Below are positions 1,367 through 21,719 of a stretch of 34,629 nt of DNA, piece after piece. A program made the position numbers and the translations under genes. The stretch spans positions 1-34,629 of the forward strand of contig JADJYZ010000037.1 in NCBI GenBank assembly GCA_016719515.1, written 5' to 3'. Below the pieces are notes generated by a model. The model was given only the letters and a program-made list of their open reading frames with translations. It was not told the origin of the DNA and searched no databases. How positions within the stretch are numbered: position 1 is the first letter of the stretch; every line of letters begins with the position of its first letter. Source of the DNA: Deltaproteobacteria bacterium. GTDB taxonomy: Bacteria; Myxococcota_A; UBA796; CAJQPC01.

Positions 1367-3928
1367 TTAGCTCGGGCAGGTGCCGAGGTTGTTGTTGTTG
1401 GTCAGCGTGCCGCCAAAGGAGCTGAGCTGGGCGACGAGGGCGTCTACGTCGTCTTCACAGAGGTCGTCATTGTATCGGATCGTGAGGTCTCCGCCCACCG
1501 TGGTGAGGCCGTCGAGGCCCGAGAGGCTCGTCAGCGCGTCGTCGTTCTGAAGGGTGAGGGCCCCGCCCACCGAGGACAGCCCGCTGAGGCCCCAGAGGTC
1601 GGTCAGCGCGGGGTTGTTGAGGATGTACAGGTCTTCGCTCACGGAGCTGACGCCTTCGAGGCCCGAGAGGCTCGTCAGCGCGGGGTGATCTGTGATGTAC
1701 AGGAGCCCGCTCACGGCGGAGAGGCCGCCAAGCGCGGAGAGGCTGGTGAGCGAGGCGTTCGTCTCAAGGTACACGTGCCCGCCTACGGAGGTGAGGCCTT
1801 CGAGGCCCGAGAGGCTCGTCAGCGCGGGGTTCTCGTAGACCGCGAGGTCCCCGCCGAGGGCCGTGAGGCCGTCGAGGCCCATGAAGCTCAGCAGCGCGTC
1901 GTTGCCCACGACGGAGAGGTCGTCGCCAACAAAGCTGAGGCCCTCAAGGCCGGTGAGGCTCGTCAGCCCGTCGCTGCCGTTGATGGTGATCGTCCCGCCC
2001 ACAGAGGACAGGCCATCGAGGCCCGAGAGGTTCGTCAGGCCGTCGTTGTTGTACAGGCTGAGGTCACCCCCGACGGTCAGGACACCTTCTAGGCCCGTGA
2101 GGCTCGTCAGCGCCCCGCTGCTGGTGATGTCGAGCGTCCCGCCCACGCTGGTGAGGCCCGAGAGCGCCGAGAGGCTCGTCAGCGCGGGGTGTGTGCTGAT
2201 GGTGAGATCCCCGCCCACGCCGGTGAGGCCCTCCAGGCCGGTGAGGCTCGTTAAACGAGGGTGGGCGCCGATAATCAGCCGTCCACCGACCGAGGTGAGG
2301 CCCGAGAGGCCCGAGATGCTTGACAGGTTGCTGTTGGAGGTGATCAACAGGCCTCCCGCCAACGAGGTGAGGCCCTCAAGGCCGGTGAGACGCTCCAATG
2401 CGTAGTTTCCGAAGATGTGAGTCTCCCCACCGATGAAGGTCAGGCCCGAGAGCCCCGAGAGGTCTGAGAGCTGATAATTGTAGTCAATGGTGACGTCTCC
2501 ACCCACGGAGGAGAGGTTCTCAAGGCCCGAGAGGGTGGTTATCGTCCTGTTGCTGTACACGATGAGATCCCCGTCGATGGCGGTGAGACAGGTCAAGGCG
2601 GCGACGTCGGTGGTCTTGGCGGCGGAGAGGTCCAGATCTCCGCCGATGCGCCGCTCACAGTACCCCGTGCAGAAGAAGGAGGTGAAGCTGGCGCCCAGAT
2701 CGCCAGAGTACGTGTCAAGGGCCAGCCACCCGAGCGGGTTGGTGTCGTCGCAGTCGTCCGCCACGGCGAAGCCGTCGCCGTCGAGGTCATCGTCGGCGGT
2801 GCTCGGATCACAGTCGTTGTCGACGCCGTCATAGGTGATCTCGACCGCGTCGGGGCTCACCGCCGAGTCGCCGTCGTCGCAATCGTCCGCCGCGACGAGG
2901 CCGTCGCCGTCGAGGTCGTCGTCGGGGGTGCTCGAATCACAGTCGTTGTCGACGCCGTCGTAGGGTAGCTCTGCGCCGCCCACGGTTGAGTCGCCGTCGT
3001 CGCAGTCCGCCGCCGCGACGAGGCCGTCGCCGTCGAGGTCGTCGTCGGGGGTGCTCGAATCACAGTCGTTGTCGACGCCGTCGTAGGGTAGCTCGGCGCC
3101 GCCTACGGTGGAGTCGCCGTCGTCGCAGTCCGCCGCCGCGACGAGGCCGTCGCCGTCGAGGTCGTCGTCGGGGGTGCTCGGATCACAGTCGTTGTCGACG
3201 CCGTCGTAGGGTAGCTCGGCGCCACCTACGGTTGAGTCGCCGTCGTCGCAGTCGTCCGCCGCGACGAGGCCGTCGCCGTCGAGGTCGTCGTCGGGGGTGC
3301 TCGGATCACAGTCGTTGTCGACGCCGTCGTAGGGCAGCTCTGCGCCGCCTACGGCTGAGTCGCCGTCGTCGCAGTCGTCCGCCGCGACGAGGCCGTCGCC
3401 GTCGAGGTCATCGTCGGGGGTGCTCGGATCACAGTCGTTGTCGACGCCGTCGTAGGGTAGCTCGGCGCCGCCTACGGTTGAGTCGCCGTCGTCGCAGTCG
3501 TCCGCCGCGGCGAGGCCGTCGCCGTCGAGGTCGTCATCAGGGGTGCTCGGATCACAGTCGTTGTCGACGCCGTCGTAGGGCAGCTCGGCGCCGCCCACGG
3601 TGGAGTCGCCGTCGTCACAGTCGTCCGCCGCGACGAGGCCGTCGCCGTCGAGGTCGTCGTCGGGGGTGCTCGGATCACAGTCGTTGTCGACGCCGTCGTA
3701 GGGCAGCTCTTCGCCGCCCACGGCGGGGTCGCCGTCGTCGCAGTCGTCCGCCGCGACGAGGCCGTCGCCGTCGCCGTCCTGGGGCTCGGTGTCATCCTGC
3801 TTGTCCTCCGCGGGCTCTTTGTCGCCGCAGGCGGAGAGGAGGCTGAGGGCGAGCGCGGCGGCGAGGAGCGGGCGCATCGGGGCTCCAACGGTGATCCCGT
3901 CGATGGGACCGTGCGTGTACGACACCAT
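1367..3928 (-). CDS. Large surface lipoprotein with eight tandem 41-aa MopE-like putative metal-binding repeats, a Cys-containing cap, about 20 LRR-like 22-aa repeats and a Cys-flanked C-terminal tail.
   Basis: Signal peptide and lipobox (LSLLSACGDKEP). Repeats of the form DGDGLVAADDCDDGDSTVGGAELPYDGVDNDCDPSTPDDDL. A cap with FFCTGYCERR. LRR-like units (LTSLSGLEGLTSVGG-L-I--N). Tail of the form CEDDVDALVAQLSSFGGTLTNNNNLGTCPS. GC3-rich codon usage. Confidence 0.85.
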   Translation of the reverse strand: MVSYTHGPIDGITVGAPMRPLLAAALALSLLSACGDKEPAEDKQDDTEPQDGDGDGLVAADDCDDGDPAVGGEELPYDGVDNDCDPSTPDDDLDGDGLVAADDCDDGDSTVGGAELPYDGVDNDCDPSTPDDDLDGDGLAAADDCDDGDSTVGGAELPYDGVDNDCDPSTPDDDLDGDGLVAADDCDDGDSAVGGAELPYDGVDNDCDPSTPDDDLDGDGLVAADDCDDGDSTVGGAELPYDGVDNDCDPSTPDDDLDGDGLVAAADCDDGDSTVGGAELPYDGVDNDCDSSTPDDDLDGDGLVAAADCDDGDSTVGGAELPYDGVDNDCDSSTPDDDLDGDGLVAADDCDDGDSAVSPDAVEITYDGVDNDCDPSTADDDLDGDGFAVADDCDDTNPLGWLALDTYSGDLGASFTSFFCTGYCERRIGGDLDLSAAKTTDVAALTCLTAIDGDLIVYSNRTITTLSGLENLSSVGGDVTIDYNYQLSDLSGLSGLTFIGGETHIFGNYALERLTGLEGLTSLAGGLLITSNSNLSSISGLSGLTSVGGRLIIGAHPRLTSLTGLEGLTGVGGDLTISTHPALTSLSALSGLTSVGGTLDITSSGALTSLTGLEGVLTVGGDLSLYNNDGLTNLSGLDGLSSVGGTITINGSDGLTSLTGLEGLSFVGDDLSVVGNDALLSFMGLDGLTALGGDLAVYENPALTSLSGLEGLTSVGGHVYLETNASLTSLSALGGLSAVSGLLYITDHPALTSLSGLEGVSSVSEDLYILNNPALTDLWGLSGLSSVGGALTLQNDDALTSLSGLDGLTTVGGDLTIRYNDDLCEDDVDALVAQLSSFGGTLTNNNNLGTCPS
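2790..3780. repeat. Tandem 123-bp (41-codon) near-identical direct repeats, about 8.4 copies, inside the lipoprotein gene.
   Basis: Near-identical nucleotide blocks recur with 123-bp period. An example block is gagtcgccgtcgtcgcagtcgtccgccgcgacgaggccgtcgccgtcgaggtcgtcgtcgggggtgctcggatcacagtcgttgtcgacgccgtcgtagggtagctcggcgccgcctacggtt. Confidence 0.8.
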
Positions 3929-3969
3929 GGAGGCCGCAACAGGCGGGATGGATCACCCCCTCGTGAGGC

Positions 3970-4062
3970 TCAGGAGCTCGGGCAGGTGCCGGATTTTTTG
4001 CCGTTGACCACCGAGCCCGAGAAGGCGGTGAGCCGGGCGAGGAGCGCGTCCACCTCCTCGCC
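3970..4062 (-). pseudogene. Relic 3' end of a third LRR-lipoprotein paralog. It encodes ...EEVDALLARLTAFSGSVVNGKKSGTCPSS followed by a stop.
   Basis: Translation of the minus strand gives a tail homologous to the C-terminus of the 1367..3928 product (EDDVDALVAQLSSFGGTLTNNNNLGTCPS). The upstream residues in the same frame (APPSLRRHPRG, reaching into the poly-G tract) are not repeat-like, and no upstream gene body is attached. Confidence 0.5.
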
Positions 4063-4094
4063 GCGAGGGTGGCGTCGTAGAGAGGGTGGTGCTT

Positions 4095-4112
4095 GGGGGG
4101 GGGGGGGGGGGG
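4095..4112. repeat. Homopolymeric G tract of 18 nt in the upstream region of the lipoprotein gene.
   Basis: The run of G is read directly from the sequence. Confidence 0.9.
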
Positions 4113-4151
4113 CCATCCAGCCCATCGGTCAGCGAAGCCCGTGTTGTTCGA

Positions 4152-4168
4152 GGGGGGGGGGGCCCCCC
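4152..4168. repeat. G11-C6 homopolymer pair.
   Basis: The sequence aggggggggggggcccccctc is read directly. It is 40 nt downstream of the G18 tract. Confidence 0.9.
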
Positions 4169-4271
4169 TCTGCGCGGCGTTGTCAACGCCATGGAGACGC
4201 GGGGCGTGGCGCCTCAACGCCGACCTCCCGTCTCAGCGGGCCGGGGCGCGGGGCCCGCTAAGCCGGAGCCA

Positions 4272-5804
4272 CTACGCAGGCACCCCCGCCGCCACCGTCA
4301 ACGCCGGCCGCGGCGACTCCTCCCCGCGCGCCGCCCGCGCCACGGAGTGCGGCGCGAACTCCGCGAACGCCCGCTTGTAGTCGGCAAACGCGCCCCCCGC
4401 GCGCACGGCGTGCATCACCGCGAGGCCGGTCTGGGCGTCGCCCTGGGCCAACACCGCCTCCACCCAGGCCCAGCGGGCGGAGGTGGCGCGCAGCTCGACG
4501 CGGCCGCGGCTGGGCTTAAACGCCGTCTCCAGGCGCTTGAGGCGGGACTCCACCACCTTGAGGCCCACGAAGCCGTCATTGAGCATGGGCGTGTTGAGCT
4601 TGGGCACGAAGGGCGCCATGCCGATGGCGACGGGGTGGATCGCGCCGAGCTCCAAGGAGAAGCGCACGAGCTCGTCGAGATCGGCGTCGGTCTCGCCGGG
4701 CACGCCGATCATCATGTAGACCTTGAGCACCTTGTAGCGGTGCTCGGCGGCCTGGCGGGCGCAGTCGATGAGGTGCTGCTCGGTGGTGCCTTTGGACATC
4801 TCCCGGCGTAGGCGCTGGCTCGCGGCGTCTGAGGCCACGGTGAGGGTGCTGTAGCCGCCTTGGCGCAGAAGCTCGGCGATGCGGGGCTTGCGGGCCACAC
4901 GGTCGGCGCGCAGGGAGCTGATGCCGACGCCCTTTCCGGCGGCGATCAGCGCCTCTAAGATGGGCACCAGCTCGGGGTGATCGGAGATCGCCGCGCCGAC
5001 GAGGCCCACCCGGGGGGCGTAGTCGGGGACGAGGGAGAGCACGCGGTCGGCGGTGACCAGGCGCATCCCGCCGTTCGTGCTGCGGCGCATCACGCAGAAG
5101 GTGCACTGGCGATGGCAGCCGCGCTCCCCCTCCAGCAGAAACATGCTGGAGAGCTCGGCGTCGGGGGCGATGATGCGGCTGCGGGCGGGGAGCTCGGCGT
5201 CGGAGGCCTTGGCGATGGTGGGCAGGCGGTCGCCGTCGCGGTCGGGCAGGTAACCGCCGGGCAGGGCGGCCACGGCGGCGCGCAGGGCGTCCAAGCCGCC
5301 GGAGATCGCGGCCTCGACGGCGGGCACCACCGTCTCCTCAGCCTCGCCCAAGAGCATGGCGTCGACAAACGGCGCGGCGGGGAGCGGGTTCGAGAAGGTG
5401 AGCGGGCCGCCGAGCAGCACCAGGGGGTCGTAGCCCGTGCGATCTTCGCGGCGGGCGGGGATGCCCGCGAGCTCGAAGGCCGTGAGCATCCCGGCGAGCT
5501 CAAGCTCGTAGGCCAAAGACACGCCGATGATGGGGAAGTCCCGCAGCGGGGTCTGCGTCTCGTAGGTGCACAGGGGCAGGCGGGAGCGGCGCCAGGCGTC
5601 TACGTCGTCGGGTAAAAACGCGCGCTCGACGGCGAACCCGGCGCGGGTGAGCAGCTCGTGAATCCACTGGAAGCCAAGGGACGACATGCCCGCGCGGTAC
5701 GGCGAGGGGTAGAGCAGGGCCACGCGCGCCTGACCGGGGGTGAAGCCCGGCCCACGCTCGCGGGCGAGGCGCTCGACGATCGGCTCGTTGTGCTTCCAGG
5801 GCAT
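4272..5804 (-). CDS. Radical SAM protein with an N-terminal B12-binding-like domain, of the TIGR03960-like uncharacterised rSAM family.
   Basis: CxxxCxxC motif (CHRQCTFC). The N-terminal RVALLYPSPYRAGMSSLGFQWIHELL matches the conserved start of this family. Confidence 0.85.
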   Translation of the reverse strand: MPWKHNEPIVERLARERGPGFTPGQARVALLYPSPYRAGMSSLGFQWIHELLTRAGFAVERAFLPDDVDAWRRSRLPLCTYETQTPLRDFPIIGVSLAYELELAGMLTAFELAGIPARREDRTGYDPLVLLGGPLTFSNPLPAAPFVDAMLLGEAEETVVPAVEAAISGGLDALRAAVAALPGGYLPDRDGDRLPTIAKASDAELPARSRIIAPDAELSSMFLLEGERGCHRQCTFCVMRRSTNGGMRLVTADRVLSLVPDYAPRVGLVGAAISDHPELVPILEALIAAGKGVGISSLRADRVARKPRIAELLRQGGYSTLTVASDAASQRLRREMSKGTTEQHLIDCARQAAEHRYKVLKVYMMIGVPGETDADLDELVRFSLELGAIHPVAIGMAPFVPKLNTPMLNDGFVGLKVVESRLKRLETAFKPSRGRVELRATSARWAWVEAVLAQGDAQTGLAVMHAVRAGGAFADYKRAFAEFAPHSVARAARGEESPRPALTVAAGVPA

Positions 5805-5881
5805 AGACTTCCTGCGAGGGGGGATGTACAGGTTATGAAGGTTCGAGCCCGCGCGCCCGCGCTTGTGAGGATTCTCCCCCT

Positions 5882-6616
5882 ATGCTGTCGTCCCTCGCCG
5901 TGCTGCTCCTGGGTCTAGCCCCCGCTGAGGCCGCGGAGTCCGTCTCCCTCCGTTACCTGCTCGCCGTCGATGGTGAGGTCATCGGGCACCGCGATCTCAA
6001 GATCAACTACCTGCCCACGGACTCCGGCGAGCTGCGGCTCATGGAGTCGTTCACCGAGCTCACCTTCTCCATCGCCGGGCAGCCCTACACCTACAAGCAG
6101 CGCCTCGGCGGCCTGGGCGGCGGCAACTTCAGCTCGGCGATCAGCGACAACGGCACCGGCCGCGAGGTGCAGGCCGTGCGATCCAGCCTCGGCTGGACGG
6201 TCACCGTCGCTGAGGGCAAGACGGCGGAGGTCTACGCCTTGGGCCCCGCGGCCTTTGACCTCACCTCCCTCTCCTTGCTCGATCCCGCCGTGGCCGAGAG
6301 CCTCGCCGGGCGCAGCACGCTCAAGGTGCTCGTCGCCGAGACCGGCGGCGTGATGGAGGGCCCCCTTCGCCAGGCCGCCGACGTGCAGATCAAGCTCGGC
6401 GGCCAGATGATCACCTGCGACGAGTACGTCTGGAGCGTGCCCGAGGGTGAGGTCCGCCTGGACTACGGCCCTGAGGGCCACCTGATGCGCTACACCACCC
6501 GGGTCGCGGGCAAGGTCATCACCGCGACGCTGGACCGCCCTCCCCCGCCGCGCACCTACGGCACGACCATGGACGGGCCGCTGATTCAGTCGAGCGTCGG
6601 CGAAGAGACGCTCTAA
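5882..6616 (+). CDS. Secreted hypothetical protein.
   Basis: Signal peptide MLSSLAVLLLGLAPAEAAES. Non-artefactual composition. Divergent from the rSAM gene. Confidence 0.7.
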   Translation: MLSSLAVLLLGLAPAEAAESVSLRYLLAVDGEVIGHRDLKINYLPTDSGELRLMESFTELTFSIAGQPYTYKQRLGGLGGGNFSSAISDNGTGREVQAVRSSLGWTVTVAEGKTAEVYALGPAAFDLTSLSLLDPAVAESLAGRSTLKVLVAETGGVMEGPLRQAADVQIKLGGQMITCDEYVWSVPEGEVRLDYGPEGHLMRYTTRVAGKVITATLDRPPPPRTYGTTMDGPLIQSSVGEETL

Positions 6617-7581
6617 ACGCCGCTGATCGCCTCCTCAAGGGCCCGGCGCACCTCAACCCGCACCATCTTCTTGCGCCAGGGCGCGGGCCAGACATGCGTC
6701 GAGAGCGGGCTCACCTGCTTATACGCGGCCTCGGCCACGGCCTCGACGCCGCCCGCCTCCCAGGCCTCGGCCACGCCGCCCAGCTCCACCGGGCGCGGGC
6801 CCACGGACGAGACGACCACGCGGGGGCCCCGATCCGGGTCAAAGGCCGCCGCCGTGAGCAAGAGCGGGTAGTCGATGCTGCCCCGGGCGCGCAGCTTGCG
6901 GTGAACCACACGGCCCGCGGGCGGCGGGGGCAAGATCACGGCGGTGAGCAGCTCATCCGGGGCGCGGCGGATCCAGTCGCGGCCGTCGTCGCCATACAGC
7001 GCGGCGACGGCCACCCGCCGGGCGCCCCGCGTAGACACCAGCTCCACCTCGGCGTCATAGAGCAGGAGCCCCGGCGCGGTGTCGGCGGAGTGCGCGGCGT
7101 AACAGCCCTTGCCTTTGGGGGCGACGTGGCAGATCGCCCCCTCGGGCGCGCTGTGGCACTTCAAGCAGCCGCCGAGCGCCCCCCGCCAGAACGTCGACTG
7201 GTTGTACCAGGCGCAGCGGGTGTCGAGCATCAGGTTGCCGCCCAGGGTGCCCATGGCCTGAATCGTAGACGTGGCGATGGTGCGTGTGGCGGCGGCCAAG
7301 GCCGGGTACAGGCTCAACACCCGCACGTCCCGACCCACCGCCCGCAGCGTGACGCCGGCGCCGATGCGTAGGCCGCCCGCCTCGGTGACGGAGATCTCTT
7401 GCAGCGCCGACACCCCACCCAGACGGATGAGCGTCGGCGGGGTGAACAGACCGTACTTCATCGAGGGCAGAAGATCCGTGCCCCCAGCGATGAGCCGGGC
7501 CTGGGGGTGGTCGGTCAGCATCTGCGCGGCGTCGGAGACGGCGCGGGGCGAGAGCACAGAGAAGGTCGGCAGCGGCAGCAT
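6613..7581 (-). CDS. Xanthine dehydrogenase family FAD-binding subunit (CoxM/XdhB-like).
   Basis: The N-terminal LIAGGTDLLPSMK motif is typical of FAD-binding molybdopterin dehydrogenase subunits. It is last in an S-L-M operon. Confidence 0.9.
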   Translation of the reverse strand: MLPLPTFSVLSPRAVSDAAQMLTDHPQARLIAGGTDLLPSMKYGLFTPPTLIRLGGVSALQEISVTEAGGLRIGAGVTLRAVGRDVRVLSLYPALAAATRTIATSTIQAMGTLGGNLMLDTRCAWYNQSTFWRGALGGCLKCHSAPEGAICHVAPKGKGCYAAHSADTAPGLLLYDAEVELVSTRGARRVAVAALYGDDGRDWIRRAPDELLTAVILPPPPAGRVVHRKLRARGSIDYPLLLTAAAFDPDRGPRVVVSSVGPRPVELGGVAEAWEAGGVEAVAEAAYKQVSPLSTHVWPAPWRKKMVRVEVRRALEEAISGV

Positions 7582-7584
7582 AGC

Positions 7585-9903
7585 TCAGGCTCCGTCAAAG
7601 GAGGCGCGGCGGGCCTCACGGTCGCGGCGCTCGATGGCCTTGAGCACACGGTCGGGGGTGAACGGCGCCTCGTTCATCCAGACGCCGCAGGCGTCAAAGA
7701 TGGCGTTGGCGATGGCGGGCACCGTGGAGAGCTGGGGGCCCTCCCCGGCCTCTTTGGCGCCGAAGGGGCCCTCCTTGTCGTTGGACTCCACGATGATCGT
7801 GATGATCTCCGGCGTCTCAAACACCGTGGGGATCTTGTACTCCAAGATCGACGGCGCCCGGTGCAGACCGTGTTTGGTGTAGCTCTGCTCCTCAGCCAGG
7901 GCCTCCCCCACGCCCATGTACACGCAGCCCTCGATCTGGCCCTCCACGATGGTGGGGTTTAAGGCCTTGCCGCAGTCGTGCGCCGCCCAGATGCGCTCGA
8001 CGGTGACGAAGCCCGTCTCCGGGTCTACCACCACCTCGGCCACCTGGGCGGTGAACGAGTACGCCGGAGACGGCCCCACGGACTGGCGGCGAAAGCGGTT
8101 GCCGATCTTCGGGGGTTTGTAGTGCCCCACAAAGCCTAAGGTGCCGTGGCGCTCTTCAGCGAGCTGCACGGCCTCGGCAAAATCGAGGGCCTTCTCTGGC
8201 GCAGACTCGCGGAACACCTTCCCGCCGACCATCACCACGTCCTCGCCGCCGAGCTTCTCCGCCGCCGCCGCCCGCATCACCGCGTAGAGCTGATCCGCGG
8301 CCATCTTGGCGGCGTTGCCCGCGAAGAAGGTCACCCGGGAGGAGTACGAGCCCAGGTCTACCGGCGTGAGCCCGGTGTCGGCCTCCAACACCACACAGTC
8401 GGTCTCGGGGATGCCCAGGCGCCCGGCGACGATGGCCGCGAGCATGTGGTTAGAGCCCTGGCCGATGTCGGCGGTGCCCGAGAGGATCGACACCCGCCCC
8501 GAGCGGTCGGCGCAGATCTGCACGGCGCTCTGGGGCATCTCCGACTGCACGATCGGGTGCAGGGCCCCGCACATATACGCCGAGGTGGCCAGGCCGATGC
8601 CCCGGTTGGGGCCGAGCTTGCCGCGCTTCTCCAAGTACCCCGAGGCGGCGAGCACCTTGTCAACACACTCTTTGAGCGCGACGGACGTGATGCGCAGGCC
8701 GTTGGAGGTCTCTGTGTCGGGCTCCACGCAGTTCTTGAGGCGCAGGGCGTCGGGGCTCATGCCGATGGCGTTCGCGAGCTTGTCGAGGTGAAGCTCCAAG
8801 GCGAAGCGCGGCTGAATCGCGCCGTGGCCTCGTTTGGGGCCGCAGGGCGGGTGGTTTGTGTAGCAGCGGTGGCTCTCAAACTGCCAGTGATCGAGCTTGT
8901 ACGGCAGCGGCAAGAACACGCCGAAGTAGTACGCCGTCACCACGCCGTAGCTGGCGTAGGCCCCGCCCGCGGCCCAGGCCTTAAAGTCGGCGGCGGTGAT
9001 GCGCCCGTCGTTGGTGACGCCCATCTTCAGGGTCATCCGTGTGGGGTGACGGCCTCGGTGGGCGTAGAACACCTCCTCACGGTCGAGGATAAACTTCACC
9101 GGGCGGCCGGTCTTTCGCGCCAAGGCCGCCGCGCACAGCTCGTTGGCGAAGGGGTCGGACTTGCCGCCATAACCCGCGCCCACATCGGGCTTGATCACCC
9201 GCACGTCCTGCTCACGCATCCCCAGCACCTTGGACACGATGCGGTGCAGGTAATGGGGGATCTGTGTAGACGACCAGAGGGTGAGCTTGCCGTCTGGGTG
9301 GGGTTGGGCCAGGGCGACCTGGGTCTCCAGGGGCACATGGGTGGAGCCGGGGTAGTCGTAATTCGACTCGATGATCACATCGGCCTCGGCGAACCCGGCG
9401 GCGGGGTCACCGTATTTCTGGAACACCCGGCGTAAGACGTTTGTGTCGCCTTTGCGGCGGCGCTCGTCATGCAGGAGCGGCTTGTCGGGGTTCAGCGCGT
9501 CCTCGATGGTGAACACGCCCTCTAAGGGCTCGTACTCCACACGGATGAGCGCGGCGGCGCGGCGGGCCGTCTCTTGATCCACGGCGGCCACGGCGGCGAC
9601 CTCGTCCCCGATGAACAGCACCTTGCCCACGGCCAAGGCGTGCTCGTCCTGGGCCACGGGGATGACGCCATACGGCGTGGGGAGATCGGCCCCGGTGAGC
9701 ACGGCGTAGACCCCGGGCAGGGCCAAGGCCGCGCTCACGTCGATGCTCAAGATTCGGGCGTGGGCGTGGGGCGAGCGGTTGAAGGCCCCGTGCAGCATCC
9801 CGGGCAAGGTGAGGTCATCGGTGAAGCGGGCGGCGCCGGTGATCTTGGGCAAGCCGTCGATCTTGCCGCCGCGACGGCCAACAGGCGAATCAGGCTCGCT
9901 CAT
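7585..9903 (-). CDS. Xanthine dehydrogenase family molybdopterin-binding large subunit (CoxL/XdhA-like).
   Basis: 772 aa. Aldehyde oxidase / xanthine dehydrogenase a/b hammerhead and Mo-binding regions. Its ATGA overlaps the upstream 2Fe-2S gene. Confidence 0.9.
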   Translation of the reverse strand: MSEPDSPVGRRGGKIDGLPKITGAARFTDDLTLPGMLHGAFNRSPHAHARILSIDVSAALALPGVYAVLTGADLPTPYGVIPVAQDEHALAVGKVLFIGDEVAAVAAVDQETARRAAALIRVEYEPLEGVFTIEDALNPDKPLLHDERRRKGDTNVLRRVFQKYGDPAAGFAEADVIIESNYDYPGSTHVPLETQVALAQPHPDGKLTLWSSTQIPHYLHRIVSKVLGMREQDVRVIKPDVGAGYGGKSDPFANELCAAALARKTGRPVKFILDREEVFYAHRGRHPTRMTLKMGVTNDGRITAADFKAWAAGGAYASYGVVTAYYFGVFLPLPYKLDHWQFESHRCYTNHPPCGPKRGHGAIQPRFALELHLDKLANAIGMSPDALRLKNCVEPDTETSNGLRITSVALKECVDKVLAASGYLEKRGKLGPNRGIGLATSAYMCGALHPIVQSEMPQSAVQICADRSGRVSILSGTADIGQGSNHMLAAIVAGRLGIPETDCVVLEADTGLTPVDLGSYSSRVTFFAGNAAKMAADQLYAVMRAAAAEKLGGEDVVMVGGKVFRESAPEKALDFAEAVQLAEERHGTLGFVGHYKPPKIGNRFRRQSVGPSPAYSFTAQVAEVVVDPETGFVTVERIWAAHDCGKALNPTIVEGQIEGCVYMGVGEALAEEQSYTKHGLHRAPSILEYKIPTVFETPEIITIIVESNDKEGPFGAKEAGEGPQLSTVPAIANAIFDACGVWMNEAPFTPDRVLKAIERRDREARRASFDGA

Positions 9904-10415
9904 GTGGACCTCCCGTTCATCCGCTCGCGGGCCTGGCGGGCGGCGGCGAGGATCTTCGTGTAGCCCGTGCAGCGGCAGATGTTGGCGCCGAGCACCTCGT
10001 TGAGCTCGGCGTCGGTCGGGTCGGGCCGCTCGTCAAACAGGGCCTTGAGCGCCATGACGAAGCCCGGCGTGCAATACCCACACTGGGCGGCGACCTGCTC
10101 GTGGAACGCGGCCTGGATGGGGTGCAGCGCGCCGCCGACGGCCACACCCTCGACGGTGAGCAGCTCGGCGTCCTGAGCCTCGGCGGCCAGGGTGATGCAC
10201 GAGAGCCGCGGCGCGCCGTTCACCAAGACCGTACACGCGCCGCAGTCGCCGACGTCGCAGCCGTGCTTGGAGCCGGTGAGGCCGAGGTCTTGGCGCAGGA
10301 GGTTGAGGAGCGTGCGGTTCGCCGGGATCAACAGGCGTCTGCGGTCGCCGTTGACCCTCAGCGTGAGGACCAGATCGTCATCGGGCTCGGTGGGCATGGC
10401 CGCCACTATAACCAA
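9900..10415 (-). CDS. (2Fe-2S)-binding small subunit of the molybdenum hydroxylase (CoxS-like).
   Basis: Two Cys clusters, CDVGDCGACTV and CGYCTPGF...CRCTGY. TTG start according to the ORF track. Confidence 0.9.
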   Translation of the reverse strand: MVIVAAMPTEPDDDLVLTLRVNGDRRRLLIPANRTLLNLLRQDLGLTGSKHGCDVGDCGACTVLVNGAPRLSCITLAAEAQDAELLTVEGVAVGGALHPIQAAFHEQVAAQCGYCTPGFVMALKALFDERPDPTDAELNEVLGANICRCTGYTKILAAARQARERMNGRST

Positions 10416-10430
10416 TGGCTTCGGGGGCGG

Positions 10431-12653
10431 TCAGACGCGCTGGGCGCCTCGGGCGCGGCGCAGGCGATCGGACTCGCCTTCAGCGCGGCGGGCGGCGCGC
10501 ACCTCGTCCTCCAAGCGGCGCAGAGCCTCTCCGGCGGCGGAGACCCGGTCTTGCTCACCGATCAGCTCTTGGCGGGCTTTGCGGGCGGCGCCGCCGATGT
10601 CCAGGAGGCGCGCCGCCGTGGCCGTGAGCTTGGACTCCCAGCGGGCGTGCTCCTCTAAGGTGGCCTCGCGGTCGGCCTTGGCGGCGAGCAGCTCGGGGCG
10701 CTCGGTGGGGTCGGGGCGCTGACCGGCCTGCTCCATCGTCTCGACGCGGCGCATGCGGGCCTCGATCTGGGCGAGGTCTTGGGCGATGGCCTCGGGGCGC
10801 AGCTCTTTGAGGCGACCATCCAGGCGATCGGCCTCGGCGGCCAGGTCAGCGGCCTCGGCGCGCAGCTCGACGACGGTGCGGCGTAGGTCGGCCTCGGCGG
10901 GGGTGGGCAGCTCGGCCTGGCCGATCGCCAGCTCTAAGGCGGCGAGGGACTCCTCAACCCGGGCGAGGAGCTGGCCGCCGCGGGTCTTGGGCGGAGGCGG
11001 CGCGACCACCGGGGCGGCGACGTTCGGCGGCGCAGGGGCGGCGGCGGCAGGTTCAGCGGCGGCGGCGCCGCGCTCCACACGCACCTGGGGGCGGCTGGCG
11101 AGCAGCTCGGGCAGACGCTCGGGGGTGACGTGGGCGCGCAGGTCTCGGCCATAGGCCAAGGGCACCTTGTCGGCGTTGCGCCCGGCGTTGGAGGCGGTCA
11201 CCATCACGACGACGGAGATGAGGATCATCACCGGGAGCGCCGCCATGGCCGAGCCGAAGGTGAGCCCCACGGCGATGGCCCACAACACCCACATCGGCCC
11301 GAGCAGGTTGGGCAGGGTGCGCATCACGCGGTTCACCCGGCCATCTTCGTCCTCAGCGCGGCGGCGTTTTTTGGCGACGAAGCCCCGGCTCTCGGCCAAG
11401 GCGGCGAGGTTATCGACGGTGTCTTCGCTCACGCCAGAGACGAGGCGGAAGCGGCGCTGGTCGAGCACGGGGCTCACCAACAGGGCGTCGATGGGCAGCC
11501 CCGCCCGCAGCGCGACGCCGCGGGCGAGGAGCTCGGCGTCGGTGATCTCCGTGGACTCCGCCGTCCACTCTTCAGGGAGCTTGGGCAGGCCGAGCTGCAC
11601 CACCACCTTGTTGATCGCCTCGGCGGCGTAGCGGGCGCTCGTCTTGCCCGCCCGGGCGCTGCGCCGGGCGTGCCTGCGGCTGGCTTGGCTGGAGTGGCGC
11701 AGCTCCAGCTCAAAGCGGCCTTCAGGCAGGGCCAACGGCGCGGGCTCTAAGGTGTAGCTGGGCGGTGGAGGCGGCGGCGGGGGCTCGTCTTTGGGCGGCG
11801 CGCGGCGGTTTTGAGCCCGCGGCGGCGGGGCGACGATGCGCCCACGAAGGGCCTCGGCGACCTCAGCGGCGCCTTGGGGGCGCTCGTCTGGGGAGAGGCG
11901 CAAGAGCGCGTGGATGATGGCGCAGAGGTCGTCCGGCAGCTCAGGGCGCAGGCTGGCGAGGGGCTCGACCTCGCCGGAGAGCTGGCGTTTGAGCACGGCG
12001 GCGGCGTTTGGCCCGGCGAAGGGCGCCCGGCCTGAAGCGGCGTAGTACAGCACCGTGCCCAAGGAGTAGAGGTCGCTGCGGGGGTCGGCGCGCTCGCCGT
12101 CGTAGACCTCGGGGGCGGCGTGCCCGGCGGTGCCCAAGGCCCCGGTGTGCCGGGTGGACTGCCACTGCTCTAGCCGGGCGAGGCCAAAGTCGGTGAGCGT
12201 CGCCACGCCCGCGTCGTCGATCATCACGTTCGCCGGGGTGATGTCGCGGTGCAGCACGCCGGCGCGGTGGGCGGCGGCGAGCACGTCGGCCAGCCGCGCG
12301 CCGATGGCCCGCAGCGCCGTGCCGCCGATGGGGCCTTCAGCGGCCACCCGCTCGGAGAGGGTGCGGCCCGGGTGGTAGGGCATGGACAAGGCGAGGTGCC
12401 CGTCGAGCTCGTGCAGCTCTTGGGCCAAGAGCGCGCCCTCGTGTTTGATGAGCCCCGCCGTCATCACCTCGCGGCGCAGGCGCTCGCGGGTGGAGGCGTC
12501 GCCGACGAGGTGGGCGTGGAGGATCTTCAGCGCGACCCGGGCGCCGCGCACCCGATCTTCAGCGAGCCAGACCGTCGCCATGCCCCCACGGCCCAGCTCA
12601 CCGATGAGCGTGAACCGCTCACCGAGCACCGCGCCCCGGGCCAAGGCGCTCAA
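10431..12653 (-). CDS. Membrane-anchored Ser/Thr protein kinase. It has an N-terminal kinase domain, a Pro-rich linker, TM helices and a C-terminal coiled-coil.
   Basis: Kinase motifs GELGRGGMATVW, VALK, HRDITPANVMID and DFGLA. Hydrophobic segment NLLGPMWVLWAIAVGLTFGSAMAALPVMILISVVVMV. It ends 15 bp upstream of coxS. The start is TTG or GTG and uncertain. Confidence 0.85.
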   Translation of the reverse strand: MSALARGAVLGERFTLIGELGRGGMATVWLAEDRVRGARVALKILHAHLVGDASTRERLRREVMTAGLIKHEGALLAQELHELDGHLALSMPYHPGRTLSERVAAEGPIGGTALRAIGARLADVLAAAHRAGVLHRDITPANVMIDDAGVATLTDFGLARLEQWQSTRHTGALGTAGHAAPEVYDGERADPRSDLYSLGTVLYYAASGRAPFAGPNAAAVLKRQLSGEVEPLASLRPELPDDLCAIIHALLRLSPDERPQGAAEVAEALRGRIVAPPPRAQNRRAPPKDEPPPPPPPPSYTLEPAPLALPEGRFELELRHSSQASRRHARRSARAGKTSARYAAEAINKVVVQLGLPKLPEEWTAESTEITDAELLARGVALRAGLPIDALLVSPVLDQRRFRLVSGVSEDTVDNLAALAESRGFVAKKRRRAEDEDGRVNRVMRTLPNLLGPMWVLWAIAVGLTFGSAMAALPVMILISVVVMVTASNAGRNADKVPLAYGRDLRAHVTPERLPELLASRPQVRVERGAAAAEPAAAAPAPPNVAAPVVAPPPPKTRGGQLLARVEESLAALELAIGQAELPTPAEADLRRTVVELRAEAADLAAEADRLDGRLKELRPEAIAQDLAQIEARMRRVETMEQAGQRPDPTERPELLAAKADREATLEEHARWESKLTATAARLLDIGGAARKARQELIGEQDRVSAAGEALRRLEDEVRAARRAEGESDRLRRARGAQRV

Positions 12654-12729: not shown

Positions 12730-13561
12730 CTATTGTGGGGTGGCCGCCGCTGGCAAACCTTTCCCCAAACGGGCCATGGTGACCCACGCGGCGACGTCAT
12801 CGACCTCCCAAGAGTTGTCGGACCCACGCCAGAGCAGGCGGCCGTCACCGTCGAGCACCAGGATGTGCAGGCTGTGGAGGATGTCGCCTTGGCTCTCGAC
12901 CCGGCTGGCCCCGGCGCGTAACAACAGCGTCTTGAGCGCGTCGAGCTCTAAGCGGGCGAAGGTCCACGTGGGCGGGGTTCGCGCCGCGCTCGGCGCCGTA
13001 GGCCTTGAGCACCTCCAGAGAGTCCCGGGCGGGGTCCAGGGTGACGCTCACGATGCGCCCGTGGCCGAGCTGGCCTTGAAGCTCCTTGAGCTTGCTCGCC
13101 AACAAGGGGCAGGCCTCGGGCATGGGGCAAGACGTGAACAAGAAGGTGAGCACCGTCGGCACGCCTTGGCCCGCGCCGATGAGCACCGGGCCGTCCACGC
13201 CGGGCATCGTGAGCGCCGGGAGCTGCTCCCCTTCAGCCAGGGCGATCACCGCGTCGGGGGCCAGGGCCAGGGGCTCCTCGTGGCCGGTGACCTTGGCGCC
13301 GATGATCCGCACCGTGCCGTCTTCAGCGGTCATCAGGTTCGCCTGGATGAGATCCCCAGGGCGAAGCTGCCGGGCGAGGTTGGGATCGACGACGAAGGTG
13401 GTGGCGCCCTCCTCAAAGGCGCCGGGCACGGGGCCGTGCTCCAGCCGCACGCTGTGCTGGCCGACGTCGCGCACCACGCCGTTGACGGAGTAGGTGTCTC
13501 CAGCGACAAAGTTACAGCCGGCCAAGGCGAAGACGGCGATGAGCCCGCGCATCAGAGGCAC
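12730..13561 (-). CDS. SCO1/SenC family copper chaperone lipoprotein. An apparent frameshift near 12964-12980 interrupts it.
   Basis: Lipobox LAGC. Thioredoxin-like CxxxC (FTSCPMPEACP). The conserved C-terminus WTFARLELD...HSLHILVLDGDGRLLWRG lies in the adjacent frame (ORF 12730..12924). Confidence 0.75.
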
Positions 13562-17749: not shown

Positions 17750-19222
17750 ATGTCCGGCAACACCTATGTGGTCCTGATTGGTGTCAACGAGTACCCCAAG
17801 CTTGGGGCGGGCGCCTCGCTCAAGGGCTCCTGCAACGACATGCGCCACTGGCTGCGCTTCGCCCGGGTGAGCCTCGGGGTGCCCGGCGAGCAGGTTCAGC
17901 TCCTCACCCACCCGGCCCTTGAGGGCGAAGACGTGCGGCTGCCCAAGGGCCACCACCGCGGCGCGAGCTTGGCCGAGGCGAACGGGGCGATCGACGCCCT
18001 CATCCATTGGCTGCAAGAGAACCCCACGGGCACCGGGCTCATCGTGTACTCCGGCCACGGCGGCCACATCAACCCCGGCGACGACCCCACCGCCACCGAC
18101 TTTGACGGCGACCGCCTCGCCTTGGGCCTCAGCGACGCGGAGATCACCGACGGCACCCTCCGCGGCGCCCTCGTCGTTCAGCAGCTTGACCTGCGCCTCG
18201 CCGCCTTGGGCTTGAACGAGCGCGTGACCTTGGTGATCGACGCCTGCTATGGCGACCTCAACGTGCAGCGTTTTGACCGGGAGCTGATCACCGCCGAGCC
18301 CCAGCCCGACGCCACGACCGGCCTGCGGGTGCTGCTCTCCACCGCCGTCGGCGCGGCCAGCTACGAGGCCTACATCGCCGGTCAGTGGCAGAGCGCCTAC
18401 TCCTTCGCGCTCCTCACCCTGCTCAGCCAGTGGGGCAACGCCCAGGTGGGCGGCGTTCACATCGTCCGGGCGAGCCACCGCGAGCTGACCTTCCGGGCGC
18501 GTGAGCTGCTCAACGTGCTCGGCTACACCGACCAGGCCCCGGCCTTCGCGGGGGCGGCGCGGGCGCTGGACGCCCCGTTCAACAACCCGTCGATCCTTGA
18601 GGTGCCGGTGAGGCCCTCGTGGGTGCCGGACGGCAACCGGAAGATCAAGGAGCTGGGCGGGGACGCTGACGACCTGGGCGTCTGGACGTTGAAGACCGGC
18701 AGCACCATCCTCGCGACGGGGCTGGTGAACAACTCCGGCGCGGCGGTGAGCTTCAACGGCGGCGGCTCGACCATCCAGAACGGCAAGGCGATGTGGTACC
18801 TCCGCAGCACCGGGGCGCCGCAGAGCTTCAGCAGCCTCACGATGGAGTGGCTGGCCCAGACCGCCAGCGGCGGATCGATCTCGTGGAACGTGCCCTCCAA
18901 CCTCACTTATGCCGAGACCGAGGACTACGCGCCGTCGATGACGACGATCACCACGGCCCCGGCGGGCACCTCCTTCGGCAACTTCAGCATCAACGACGCC
19001 AACAGCGACCCCAAGAGCATGTGGGTGTCCGTCGAGGTGACCTCCAACGGCGCGGGCAGCTACAAGGTCAACACCCTCTCGTTCACCGCGACGAGCAGCG
19101 TCACGCCTTACAAGGTCACCCCGTTGCCTCCGCCCGGCTCGAGCTCGGGGAGCTGGACCAAGAACCAGTCCAACATCCCCTTCACCGTCGGCGTGACCTA
19201 CTCCTCCAACACCCTCGGCTGA
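17750..19222 (+). CDS. Caspase-family (peptidase C14) protein with a C-terminal Ser/Thr/Asn/Gly-rich beta-type domain of about 240 aa.
   Basis: His/Cys dyad context, YSGHGG and LVIDACYGD. No signal peptide. The C-terminal half is a low-complexity S/T/N-rich region. Confidence 0.85.
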   Translation: MSGNTYVVLIGVNEYPKLGAGASLKGSCNDMRHWLRFARVSLGVPGEQVQLLTHPALEGEDVRLPKGHHRGASLAEANGAIDALIHWLQENPTGTGLIVYSGHGGHINPGDDPTATDFDGDRLALGLSDAEITDGTLRGALVVQQLDLRLAALGLNERVTLVIDACYGDLNVQRFDRELITAEPQPDATTGLRVLLSTAVGAASYEAYIAGQWQSAYSFALLTLLSQWGNAQVGGVHIVRASHRELTFRARELLNVLGYTDQAPAFAGAARALDAPFNNPSILEVPVRPSWVPDGNRKIKELGGDADDLGVWTLKTGSTILATGLVNNSGAAVSFNGGGSTIQNGKAMWYLRSTGAPQSFSSLTMEWLAQTASGGSISWNVPSNLTYAETEDYAPSMTTITTAPAGTSFGNFSINDANSDPKSMWVSVEVTSNGAGSYKVNTLSFTATSSVTPYKVTPLPPPGSSSGSWTKNQSNIPFTVGVTYSSNTLG

Positions 19223-21570
19223 GGAACGGGCCACACCACCCGCAGCCCCATCGTTAAAAAATGGCGCTCTGGGGTGTTTCCGAAGCGGGTGGCGAGGCGC
19301 TGGGTCATCGGGGGGGAGCCAAAAAAGCCCCCCCGCACCGCGCGGTGGGTGCCCGCATCGGGGGAGTCAACCACCCGGCCATCCTGGATCGGTCCACGGA
19401 CCGACCACCAGTTGCGGCACCAAGTGCGGGCGTTTCCGGCGAGGTCACGCACGCCGTAGGGGCTCTCGTCCGCCTCAAACTCACCGACCGAGAGCAGGCC
19501 CGGCGGCGAAGGAACGGAGCCCAACACCCTCGACCAACGTGGCTCCAGCTCCCGGCCCCAAGGGGTGTACCGCCCGTCCACACCGCGCCCGGCCTTCTCG
19601 ATCTCAAGCTCGTTGGGCAGGTGTCCGCCCATCCAAGCGGCGGCGCGCGCGGCGGCGTCCCACGAGATCGCCGTCACCGGATGATTGACCTCCCCGGGAC
19701 GGCCGAGCACCACACGGTCCCCGCTGCGCACGAGATACTGGTCTTTTATGCTGACCCAGGGCCAACAGCTCTCCACCCCCGCCTCATCCCCAGCGGCGAT
19801 GAGCGCCTCCAAAAACGCCGCGTACTCCCCCAAGGTCACCGGGAAACGCCCCAAGACGAAGCCGTCTACCCACACCCGCTGCCGGGGCAGGCTGTCGGCG
19901 GCGAAGGGGTCTCCGCCGACGATGCAGTAGCCCGGCGGGATGTAGACCTGGTCGTCACGAAGCTCGCCGGGCTCGGGGATCACGATCAGCGCGGGCTCAC
20001 CCCCCTCGGGAGGCACGCCGTCCCAGCGCCCGGCGCGCTCCATGAGCACGGGGTAACGAACGGTGACGCCGTCGGCCTCCAAGGTGACGAGCCAAGATCC
20101 CCGGGGCACGGTCACCTCACGCAGGGGCGTCACGCCGAGGCGCCGCTCGGGCTCGGGCACGAGGCGACGACCCTGCTCGACGAAGCGGTGCAGCCAGGCG
20201 ACGGCGGGCCGGGACGTGCGGATGGACAAGGCGCCGTCGCCCTTGAGGTACGCCGCGTGTCGCCCGCGGTCGTGGCTCGCGAGCAGCAGCTCCGCCCGCT
20301 GCGTCGCCAACGGATCAAGCTGGCGATCGGCGCGCTCCAGCTCGTCGCGGTAGTGGTCGGCGAGGAGCGCGTGGGCCTCGGGAAGCTCGGGATCCCGGTT
20401 GAGCGCGGCGCGGAGATCCTGGTGCCAGGCGACCTCTCGTAAGGTCACCTCGGACTCTAAGGCGGCGGCGCGGTCCTGCATCTCCCAGATGGGCAGCTTG
20501 GACTCGACGGGCGCTTCAGCGCTCAACGACTCCAAGAGCGAGGCGGCGTGGGCCCGAAGCGCCTCGGCCTCCCGCTGGAGCTTGAGGATCCCCGGGCGCT
20601 GGGCCTCGGCGCGGCGCGTCTGGGCGAGGGCCTCGGCGCGGCGCAACGAGCCGTCGAGCCACAACGAGAGCGCCTCGGCCATCGCGCCGGCGTCGGGGTA
20701 GCGGTGAATGGGGTCGGGCATCAGCGCCCGGCCGCAGATGTGGCGCAGCTCGGGGGGGAGCTCCGCGCGCTCGATGGCCTCGGGCCAGCGCGGCGGGTCG
20801 GAGACGAGGCGCCGCCAGATGAGCTTGGGGTCGCCCTCCAGGGGGCCTCGACCGCACAGGACGCTGTGCAGCACGGCGCCCAGACCGTACACGTCCGAGG
20901 CCGGCCCCACCTGATCGTGCTGGCCCCGCGCCTGCTCTGGCGACATAAACGCCGGGGTGCCCAGCACCGCGCCGCCCAAGGTGACGCCCTCGTTCTCCCA
21001 GACCGGCGCCCCGGCGAAGGGCGGCAGCTCCGGCGCGCCGATCCACCGCGCCAGCCCCCAGTCCATCACCCGCACCTCACCGAAGCGCCCCACCATGAGG
21101 TTCGCGGGCTTGAGGTCGCGGTGCAGCACCCCGCGGCTGTGGGCGTACCCGACGGCGTCGCAGATGCTTCGCACCAGGGTGACGAGGCGGTGAACCACGT
21201 CGGGGCCCACGGCCGGGCCGGTGATCATCTCGCCCAGCGTCTTGCCATCCACCAAGGTCATCGTGAACCAGAGGCGCCCGTCAAGAAGCTCTCCGCGGTC
21301 CATCACCGAGACGACGCCGGGGTGCTGCAGCCGCGCCGTGGTCGCGATCTCCCCCAGAAACCTCGCCCGCGCGGCGGCGCTCTCCAGGAGCTCCCAGCCG
21401 AGCACCTTCATCGCCACGGGCACCCGCAGCTTGTGATCCCACACCCGGCGAACCTCCCCCATGCCGCCCCGGGCGATGAGCCCGAGGTCGTGGTACCGCG
21501 CCTCGGGCGACTCAAAGGCCGCCACGGCCGCGGGCTCCCCGTCTGGGGTCCAGGTGGTCTCGTCGTGCAT
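19198..21570 (-). CDS. Ser/Thr protein kinase fused to a C-terminal formylglycine-generating enzyme (FGE-sulfatase/SUMF1-like) domain.
   Basis: Kinase motifs GLIARGGMGEV, AMK, HRDLKPANLMV and DWGLA. The C-terminal region ends RAVRGGFFGS, as FGE does. The likely start is the ATG at 21570 (MHDETTW...). The ORF-track extension to 21702 is Arg/Pro-rich. Confidence 0.8.
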   Translation of the reverse strand: MHDETTWTPDGEPAAVAAFESPEARYHDLGLIARGGMGEVRRVWDHKLRVPVAMKVLGWELLESAAARARFLGEIATTARLQHPGVVSVMDRGELLDGRLWFTMTLVDGKTLGEMITGPAVGPDVVHRLVTLVRSICDAVGYAHSRGVLHRDLKPANLMVGRFGEVRVMDWGLARWIGAPELPPFAGAPVWENEGVTLGGAVLGTPAFMSPEQARGQHDQVGPASDVYGLGAVLHSVLCGRGPLEGDPKLIWRRLVSDPPRWPEAIERAELPPELRHICGRALMPDPIHRYPDAGAMAEALSLWLDGSLRRAEALAQTRRAEAQRPGILKLQREAEALRAHAASLLESLSAEAPVESKLPIWEMQDRAAALESEVTLREVAWHQDLRAALNRDPELPEAHALLADHYRDELERADRQLDPLATQRAELLLASHDRGRHAAYLKGDGALSIRTSRPAVAWLHRFVEQGRRLVPEPERRLGVTPLREVTVPRGSWLVTLEADGVTVRYPVLMERAGRWDGVPPEGGEPALIVIPEPGELRDDQVYIPPGYCIVGGDPFAADSLPRQRVWVDGFVLGRFPVTLGEYAAFLEALIAAGDEAGVESCWPWVSIKDQYLVRSGDRVVLGRPGEVNHPVTAISWDAAARAAAWMGGHLPNELEIEKAGRGVDGRYTPWGRELEPRWSRVLGSVPSPPGLLSVGEFEADESPYGVRDLAGNARTWCRNWWSVRGPIQDGRVVDSPDAGTHRAVRGGFFGSPPMTQRLATRFGNTPERHFLTMGLRVVWPVPQPRVLEE

Positions 21571-21719
21571 GATGAATGCTACAGCGCGGAGGGATCCCCG
21601 GTCAAGGCGGAGGCGCTGCCGCGCCCTTGATGGCCCAGGCGGCGATTGACGCCGGGGGGTGGCGGCGGGCGCCTCGCCGGGTGAGAGTACAGCGTGCCTC
21701 ACCTCCTCTGGAGCCGCTG

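Follow-up and report, generated by a model that had tools for sequence, protein, structure and literature searches.

In the 34,629-nt window (i.e., the whole stretch of DNA that was analyzed), two exceptionally long homopolymer tracts lie between a B12-binding-type radical SAM (rSAM) gene and a surface lipoprotein gene, both encoded on the minus strand (Table 1). The rSAM gene is conserved across the Myxococcota in the company of unrelated neighbors, and it is unrelated to the tracts. The lipoprotein carries eight 41-aa MopE-type repeats followed by Receptor-L/LRR repeats; a whole-protein homolog search returned distant MopE matches only, and exact-protein look-ups of the lipoprotein (with both of its possible starts) and of the FAD protein found no record. 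At the DNA level, repeats occupy window positions 2736 to 3896 and 174 to 2469: the 123-nt MopE-type units of the lipoprotein gene are in tandem and number eight or nine, the central six being 92 to 95% identical, and many 72-nt LRR repeats are spread over this gene and the downstream 389-aa gene. Three short-read contigs (L001, L002, and L094) end soon after the lipoprotein start, near the onset of the repeats.

The longest ORF of the lipoprotein gene begins at position 3928, but the start is likely the ATG at 3877 to 3875, because this codon is preceded at a distance of 5 nt by GGAG and opens a reading frame encoding MRPLLAAALALSLLSAC, a predicted lipobox signal peptide. An initial reading of the DNA made from its letters alone (hereafter, the sequence-only reading) had described a 343-bp region between the rSAM and lipoprotein genes. 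The two flanking genes were identified as such, but this length was counted from 3928, so that the region comprises 394 nt (3878 to 4271) when the ATG at 3877 is taken as the start. On the sense strand, the order of the elements is the rSAM stop codon (4274 to 4272), two stem-loops, G6C11, C18, a relic gene tail, a 92-nt spacer, and the lipoprotein start.

Table 1. Features of the intergenic region, its flanks, and related loci (coordinates refer to the window unless a contig is named)
Feature	Position	Strand	Description
rSAM gene, B12-binding type	4272..5804	-	Radical_SAM_N2 and Radical_SAM domains; weak TIGR03960 match
Stem-loop 1, past the rSAM stop	4235..4259	-	Predicted; AGCGGGCC-N9-GGCCCGCT
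Stem-loop 2	4176..4221	-	Predicted; GGCGTTGAGGCGCC...GGCGTTGACAACGCC; kept in all relic-type assemblies
Tract patch	4060..4172	-	113 nt; probable decayed last LRR unit of the relic; holds both tracts
G11C6	4152..4168	+	G6C11 on the sense (minus) strand
G18	4095..4112	+	C18 on the sense (minus) strand
Putatively spurious ORF	3970..4125	-	51 codons; C18 read as APPPPPQ
Relic tail	3970..4059	-	Last 29 codons and stop of a paralogous LRR lipoprotein gene; EEVDALLARLTAFSGSVVNGKKSGTCPSS*
Spacer	3878..3969	-	92 nt, directly 5' of the lipoprotein start; GGAG at 3886-3883
Lipoprotein gene	1367..3877 (longest ORF from 3928)	-	Lipobox signal peptide, MopE-type repeats, Receptor-L/LRR repeats
Module copies	3860-4059; L001 6208-6374 and 8364-8494; L004 11548-11741; L042 9971-10149		LRR tail, spacer, and signal-peptide start
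SCO1/SenC-like lipoprotein gene	12730-13561	-	Split in two frames; FTSCPMPEACP motif

The stem-loop next to the rSAM stop is perfect in the window, one pair shorter in L042, and imperfect in L094 and L095 (these assemblies are described below). Hairpins were predicted for both stem-loops and for G6C11, but none of them is followed by a T-run, and a scan for intrinsic terminators on the minus strand was empty in this region. No Rfam family was detected in the intergenic region, even at an E value of ≤1, and a homology search with the plus-strand ORF at 3911 to 4261 gave no match. A repeated element of the REP or MITE type was also considered and rejected, the hairpin region having been found only in the window and in L042. 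The spacer shows 0 differences over its 92 nt and is invariant in five same-species assemblies, the window included; it holds a conserved GATCCCATCGACGGGA block and likely represents the control region or the 5' untranslated region of the lipoprotein gene.

Both tracts were found exactly where the sequence-only reading had placed them, and its description of them as lying upstream of the lipoprotein gene also holds, since this gene follows them on the minus strand. The view that runs of such length do not arise by chance was borne out as well. With dinucleotide-preserving shuffles, the expected number of matches was 0.17 for G11/C11 and 0.00 for G18/C18, and no shuffle reached either tract length; the next-longest homopolymer across the window measures 7 nt. 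In related Myxococcota loci (942 kb), the longest G/C run is 12 nt and abuts an NN gap. On the sense strand, G6C11 begins 103 nt past the rSAM stop, and 39 nt of unique sequence separates it from C18; the two tracts lie 274 and 217 nt, respectively, upstream of the lipoprotein ATG at 3877. The G18 run is on the template strand for both flanking genes, and an RNA crossing 4095 to 4112 would carry poly(C). The tract allele of the window can be traced with the k-mers GGTGGTGCTTGGGGGGGG and GGGGGGGGCCATCCAGCCC. Elsewhere in the window, a hairpin-like sequence (G7-AGCC-A6-GC-C7; 19310 to 19334) lies inside a minus-strand Ser/Thr kinase-FGE-sulfatase ORF (19198 to 21702).

We compared the region with its counterpart in four further assemblies of this species; these derive from other samples and strains and diverge from the window by approximately 1 to 1.5%. 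One is a Nanopore hybrid assembly generated with CANU (L042), and three are short-read-only contigs (L094, assembled with SPAdes; L095 and L096, assembled with MEGAHIT) from three ENA analyses, which were reached via a protein search with the ORF that crosses C18; this search also led to the GenBank entry of the window itself, on a contig of 98,629 nt. Both tracts are absent from all four assemblies, in which interrupted, complex sequences (i.e., GGATGCCCTCCGCCCCATCGCCC and GAGGGGCCTC(A/C)CCCTC) are found instead; the two sites common to L042 and L094 to L096 read GAGGGGCCTC(A/C)CCCTC and GGATGCCCTCCGCCCCATCGCCCAG. On the sense strand, C18 replaces the CCCTCCGCCCCATCGCCC of the other four assemblies and G6C11 replaces their GGGGCCTC(A/C)CCC. 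The sequence-only reading had looked to orthologous loci for a check on its proposal, and the outcome goes against it: the tracts are missing, rather than variable in length, in every one of these assemblies.

The four other assemblies differ from one another by 1 to 2 nt across 160 nt. When the window was aligned with L042 and with L094, 32 columns differed within positions 4060 to 4172 and all of them were private to the window; here, L095 and L096 are of the L094 type. Relative to L042, this patch comprises 14 substitutions and 7 indel events. Elsewhere, the window diverges from L094 by approximately 1.5%, and its third-codon-position divergence from L042 is approximately 3%. A second window-private cluster (four substitutions at 3993 to 4008, around a T6 run) is located in the relic tail, and the window, L042, and L094 do not differ over the 53 nt that separate the two clusters. 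The version in the window probably represents the derived state, because it is further from functional LRR sequences than that of L042 (40 to 41% versus 53 to 55% identity to functional LRR 3' ends).

No further alleles of the tract region were recovered in two pattern scans of metagenome contigs (one tolerant of tract length and one anchored on the flanks; 0 matches). As for a donor of the patch, no better match to the sequence between the tracts was found in the window or in the first 83 of the loci compared (approximately 1 Mb of related DNA). A hypervariable segment or diversity-generating mechanism was rejected, given that the other four alleles are nearly identical and that the changes are not adenine specific; no Pfam reverse transcriptase domain was detected among the 26 window ORFs scanned. 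A bias toward AT-to-GC substitution was likewise discarded, as the substitution spectrum of the patch is not meaningfully different from the background.

The DNA beneath the tracts is, as judged by homology, the decayed relic of a paralogous LRR lipoprotein gene and not a promoter. Positions 3975 to 4059 share 74% DNA identity over 85 nt with the 3' end of the lipoprotein gene itself (1369 to 1453). The equivalent position in L004, a sister species, is occupied by an intact LRR gene of 391 aa that ends in ...DAVDALIAQLTTFTGAVVNSKNTGTCPSS*; in tblastn searches, the relic matches the protein of this gene with E values of 3e-11 (window) and 5e-13 (L042). Upstream of the tail, the sequences of L042 and L094 align codon by codon with the last LRR unit found in functional genes (GCGCTGACGAGCTTCGATGGTCTGGATGCCCTC; pattern ...ALTSFDGLDAL). 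The C18 site corresponds to the "L-T-S-V-G-G" ("L-x-x-V-G-G") codons of this unit, and the G6C11 site corresponds to its "G-G-x-L-x-L" codons (GGGGCCTCACCCTC); in L042, the equivalent of the latter is predicted to form a small GC hairpin. In the window, the segments of homology are spread over three frames. We regard the segment as a relic because it is homologous to the 3' ends of the family, because the gene body and a consistent frame have been lost, and because all four allelic changes are nonsynonymous. It resembles known gene relics in variable islets and defense slots in being a 3' paralog fragment, with its frame lost, beside a slot for variable cargo, but such relics normally lack two homopolymers of 17 to 18 nt.

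An ORF does run through C18, and GenBank annotates it from its second ATG (4116) as a hypothetical protein (MBK9368453.1, IPN01_19440; MBK9644897.1 in the MAG of L042). It begins with ATG, ends in ...GTCPSS*, lies beside a radical SAM gene, and has an uninterrupted frame in each of the five assemblies (51 codons in the window and 50 in its relatives). Thus, one might see in it a genuine small protein, in which C18 would act as a polyproline or frameshift switch and which might even serve as a peptide substrate of the radical SAM enzyme. We give this proposal almost no credence. The ORF tail is the C terminus of the LRR lipoprotein family, and the frame used in the central part of the ORF is not the same in the window as in L042. 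The differences among the L042, L094, and L096 alleles of the 50-aa ORF are exclusively nonsynonymous (4 of 4, with 0 synonymous), the codons in the frame used by the window end in A or T, unlike those of real genes in this DNA, and the rSAM gene is maintained with unrelated neighbors across the phylum. The ORF is, on these sequence features, almost certainly not a gene, and a precursor of a small peptide or RiPP beside the rSAM gene was excluded by the frame and substitution pattern.

Comparison of the available contigs indicates that the DNA separating the rSAM stop from the lipoprotein gene is a variable slot. Homology to L001 to L003, in which the rSAM protein is identical, ends at position 4254. 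Past the rSAM stop, L001 to L003 and L084 carry a toxin-antitoxin pair (i.e., an 86-aa gene and a PIN gene); in L001 to L003, a 186-aa gene also precedes the next lipoprotein module, and a pentapeptide-repeat gene is present in L001 and L002. The slot of L001 spans positions 2777 to 6400. In L004, the slot (7552 to 11632) contains PtuA/PtuB-like genes (a Septu-type ATPase and an HNH protein) in addition to the intact LRR gene. The window, L042, and L094 to L096 have a minimal slot with hairpins and the relic only (4060 to 4254 in the window), in which the rSAM gene and the module that follows are only approximately 200 nt apart. Look-ups of the rSAM protein and a 244-aa protein returned only contigs that were of the toxin-antitoxin type or too short. 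The module itself (approximately 180 to 200 nt, consisting of the 29-codon LRR tail, the 92-nt spacer, and the signal-peptide start) recurs before several secreted-protein genes (Table 1). This recurrence suggests that the control region of the lipoprotein gene may travel within the module, and the tracts start just beyond its upstream edge (4060).

How far the tracts can be trusted depends on the source of the window, which appears to be a Nanopore-first MAG of a Danish activated-sludge R9.4.1 series, since the accession and locus-tag series match (MBK9368453.1/IPN01 for the window and MBK9644897.1/IPO67 for L042). In that study (PMC8012365), assembly with CANU was followed by Racon, by Medaka applied twice, and by Racon with HiSeq X data. 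Accordingly, the patch may be a local consensus artifact created during assembly or polishing, the true sequence being of the interrupted L094/L042 type or another; possible routes are a mixed-strain pileup at the structural-variant slot and the mismapping of paralogous LRR short reads during Racon polishing. We consider such an origin possible, although not probable. It would fit with the privacy of every patch difference to one assembly, with the grouping of the private changes at T6, G18, and G11C6, three places in which the homopolymers of the window are purer, and with the location at a structural-variant slot where strain types co-occur. Within 180 nt, the window has both of its extreme tracts, numerous small indels, and the T6 cluster, around an untouched 53-nt island, and this pattern would suit a consensus error linked to homopolymers no less than it would suit evolution. 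Sister Nanopore MAGs do keep apparent homopolymer indels (e.g., C4 in the rSAM gene of L042 versus C5 in the window, equivalent to position 5127), and in L084, gene calling recovered no more than a 208-aa fragment of the rSAM gene (871 to 1497). The window itself has a split gene: the sequence-only reading had mentioned two frameshifts at G/C runs, of which one was located, in the SCO1-like gene (a frame change between 12924 and approximately 12985, beside AACCCCGCCCAC, at short C runs), and the other was not. This gene is either a pseudogene or the product of a 1-nt consensus error. The artifact alternative raised by that reading thus stays a serious rival, given the R9.4.1 source and at least one frameshifted gene. 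Residual errors in R9.4.1 MAGs (PMC8012365; for homopolymer indels, PMC9262707) share with the present case the data type, the study series, and an anomaly confined to one assembly, but they typically involve 1 to 2 nt and usually shorten a run, whereas the patch combines an 18-nt run with a 6-nt deletion and several substitutions, which are not homopolymer-type errors. R9.4.1 data normally shorten long homopolymers and do not create them. Furthermore, L042, from the same pipeline, reproduces the Illumina sequence at the tract sites, which argues against a systematic conversion of sequence into homopolymers, and dark-cycle poly(G) mispolishing was ruled out for this series because HiSeq X uses four-color chemistry. 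The flanking consensus is also good: the rSAM protein is identical to that of three short-read contigs, and the alignment of 7.5 kb of the window to three relatives contains no frame-breaking indels. On balance, long G:C runs probably exist in the strain, with lengths that are uncertain, and a pure artifact is the less probable outcome, with a chance well short of even. Since they come from a Nanopore R9.4.1 assembly, the precise lengths of the tracts should not be relied on.

If the runs are real, they might act on the lipoprotein gene. In the classical contingency loci of Neisseria, Haemophilus, and Campylobacter, poly(G) or poly(C) tracts lie within ORFs or between the -35 and -10 elements. 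The tracts described here resemble these loci in pairing a G:C homopolymer with a cell-surface gene, but they lie outside any intact ORF or promoter hexamers, and the difference among strains is one of presence in one assembly versus absence in four. A hypermutable switch, in which slippage of C18 or G6C11 or a G-quadruplex formed by G18 on the template strand would make the surface lipoprotein phase variable via read-through or an upstream promoter, has to be weighed against the genetic context; we judge it to be improbable. The tracts (i.e., G18 and G11/C6) are of the length at which simple-sequence repeats are prone to slippage, and in fact far exceed the thresholds; the lipoprotein gene follows on the same strand, and some read-through is conceivable, as no U-tail accompanies the stem-loops past the rSAM stop. 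However, the tracts are embedded in a decayed relic, outside the conserved module that accompanies the paralogous genes, no sigma-70-like hexamer pair was found on the relevant strand in positions 3600 to 4600, and neither tract thus forms the spacer of such a promoter. The only ORF across C18 is a nonconserved relic frame, and related strains with differing tract lengths were not found among L042, L094, L095, and L096. The slipped-strand contingency element proposed by the sequence-only reading thus found no support. The same reading suggested that the G run could fold into a G-quadruplex. Template-strand G-quadruplexes can impede transcription, and G18, which satisfies the rule of four G3+ runs with N1-7 spacing, is predicted to form a three-tetrad structure (ViennaRNA with G-quadruplex energies). 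In contrast, the common allele (GGGCGATGGGGCGGAGGG; runs of 3, 4, 2, and 3), that of L042 included, is not predicted to form one; the motif is not conserved, and gating of the lipoprotein gene by it is unsupported. A close parallel is the C-stretch of the Bordetella pertussis fim2, fim3, and fimX promoters, which controls the phase variation of fimbriae and is likewise a long sense-strand poly(C) upstream of a surface-protein gene in a high-G+C genome (PMC1891110). That stretch lies inside a defined promoter, is conserved with length polymorphism across strains, and alters transcription (PMC1891110), whereas C18 lies 217 nt upstream of the start, in a relic, is missing in the other assemblies, and has no promoter identified nearby. 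In the Bordetella survey, a regulatory role was considered unlikely for intergenic homopolymer tracts farther than 150 nt upstream and most likely for those at 21 to 80 nt from the start codon (PMC1891110); both tracts of the window, at 217 to 274 nt, are beyond the 150-nt mark. One further variant is that we are seeing a contingency locus at its birth, i.e., that the relic has spawned two hypermutable G:C runs, one of them predicted to be capable of forming a G-quadruplex, which now modulate read-through or transcription from an upstream promoter. This appears very unlikely. If it were true, the case would concern an uncultured wastewater myxobacterium, with a housekeeping gene on one side of the runs and a surface LRR lipoprotein gene on the other; to our knowledge, no contingency locus has been described in this free-living predator lineage.

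The explanation that we favor, at roughly an even chance, is that the tracts are a strain-private, derived state in dead DNA, i.e., a real but neutral expansion or recombination patch that does not gate the lipoprotein gene. In the lineage of the window, the slot contains no more than two stem-loops and the LRR relic, in which C-rich remnants of LRR codons may have become purer and longer runs (GGGGCCTCACCC giving rise to G6C11 and CCCTCCGCCCCATCGCCC to C18). The cause would be either slipped-strand expansion in unconstrained sequence or a recombination or gene conversion event that brought in a diverged copy. The control region would correspond to the invariant stretch of approximately 180 nt downstream of the tracts. 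The tracts themselves would be selectively neutral, a view taken from their nonconservation only, and a newly arisen tract could affect expression. In kind, they are nothing new (i.e., a homopolymeric simple repeat in noncoding relic DNA), or else perhaps an assembly error.

Whether the tracts are real or artifactual, what is known about homopolymer-based regulation is unchanged. In the event of an artifact, the case illustrates that Nanopore-first MAGs in GenBank can carry garbled patches that mimic contingency loci, here annotated as the protein MBK9368453.1. If the tracts are real, they would provide a clean natural case of homopolymers arising from C-rich codon remnants once selection has been lifted, with the ancestral state preserved in four assemblies, and they might furnish the material from which a new phase-variable promoter could emerge in the Myxococcota.
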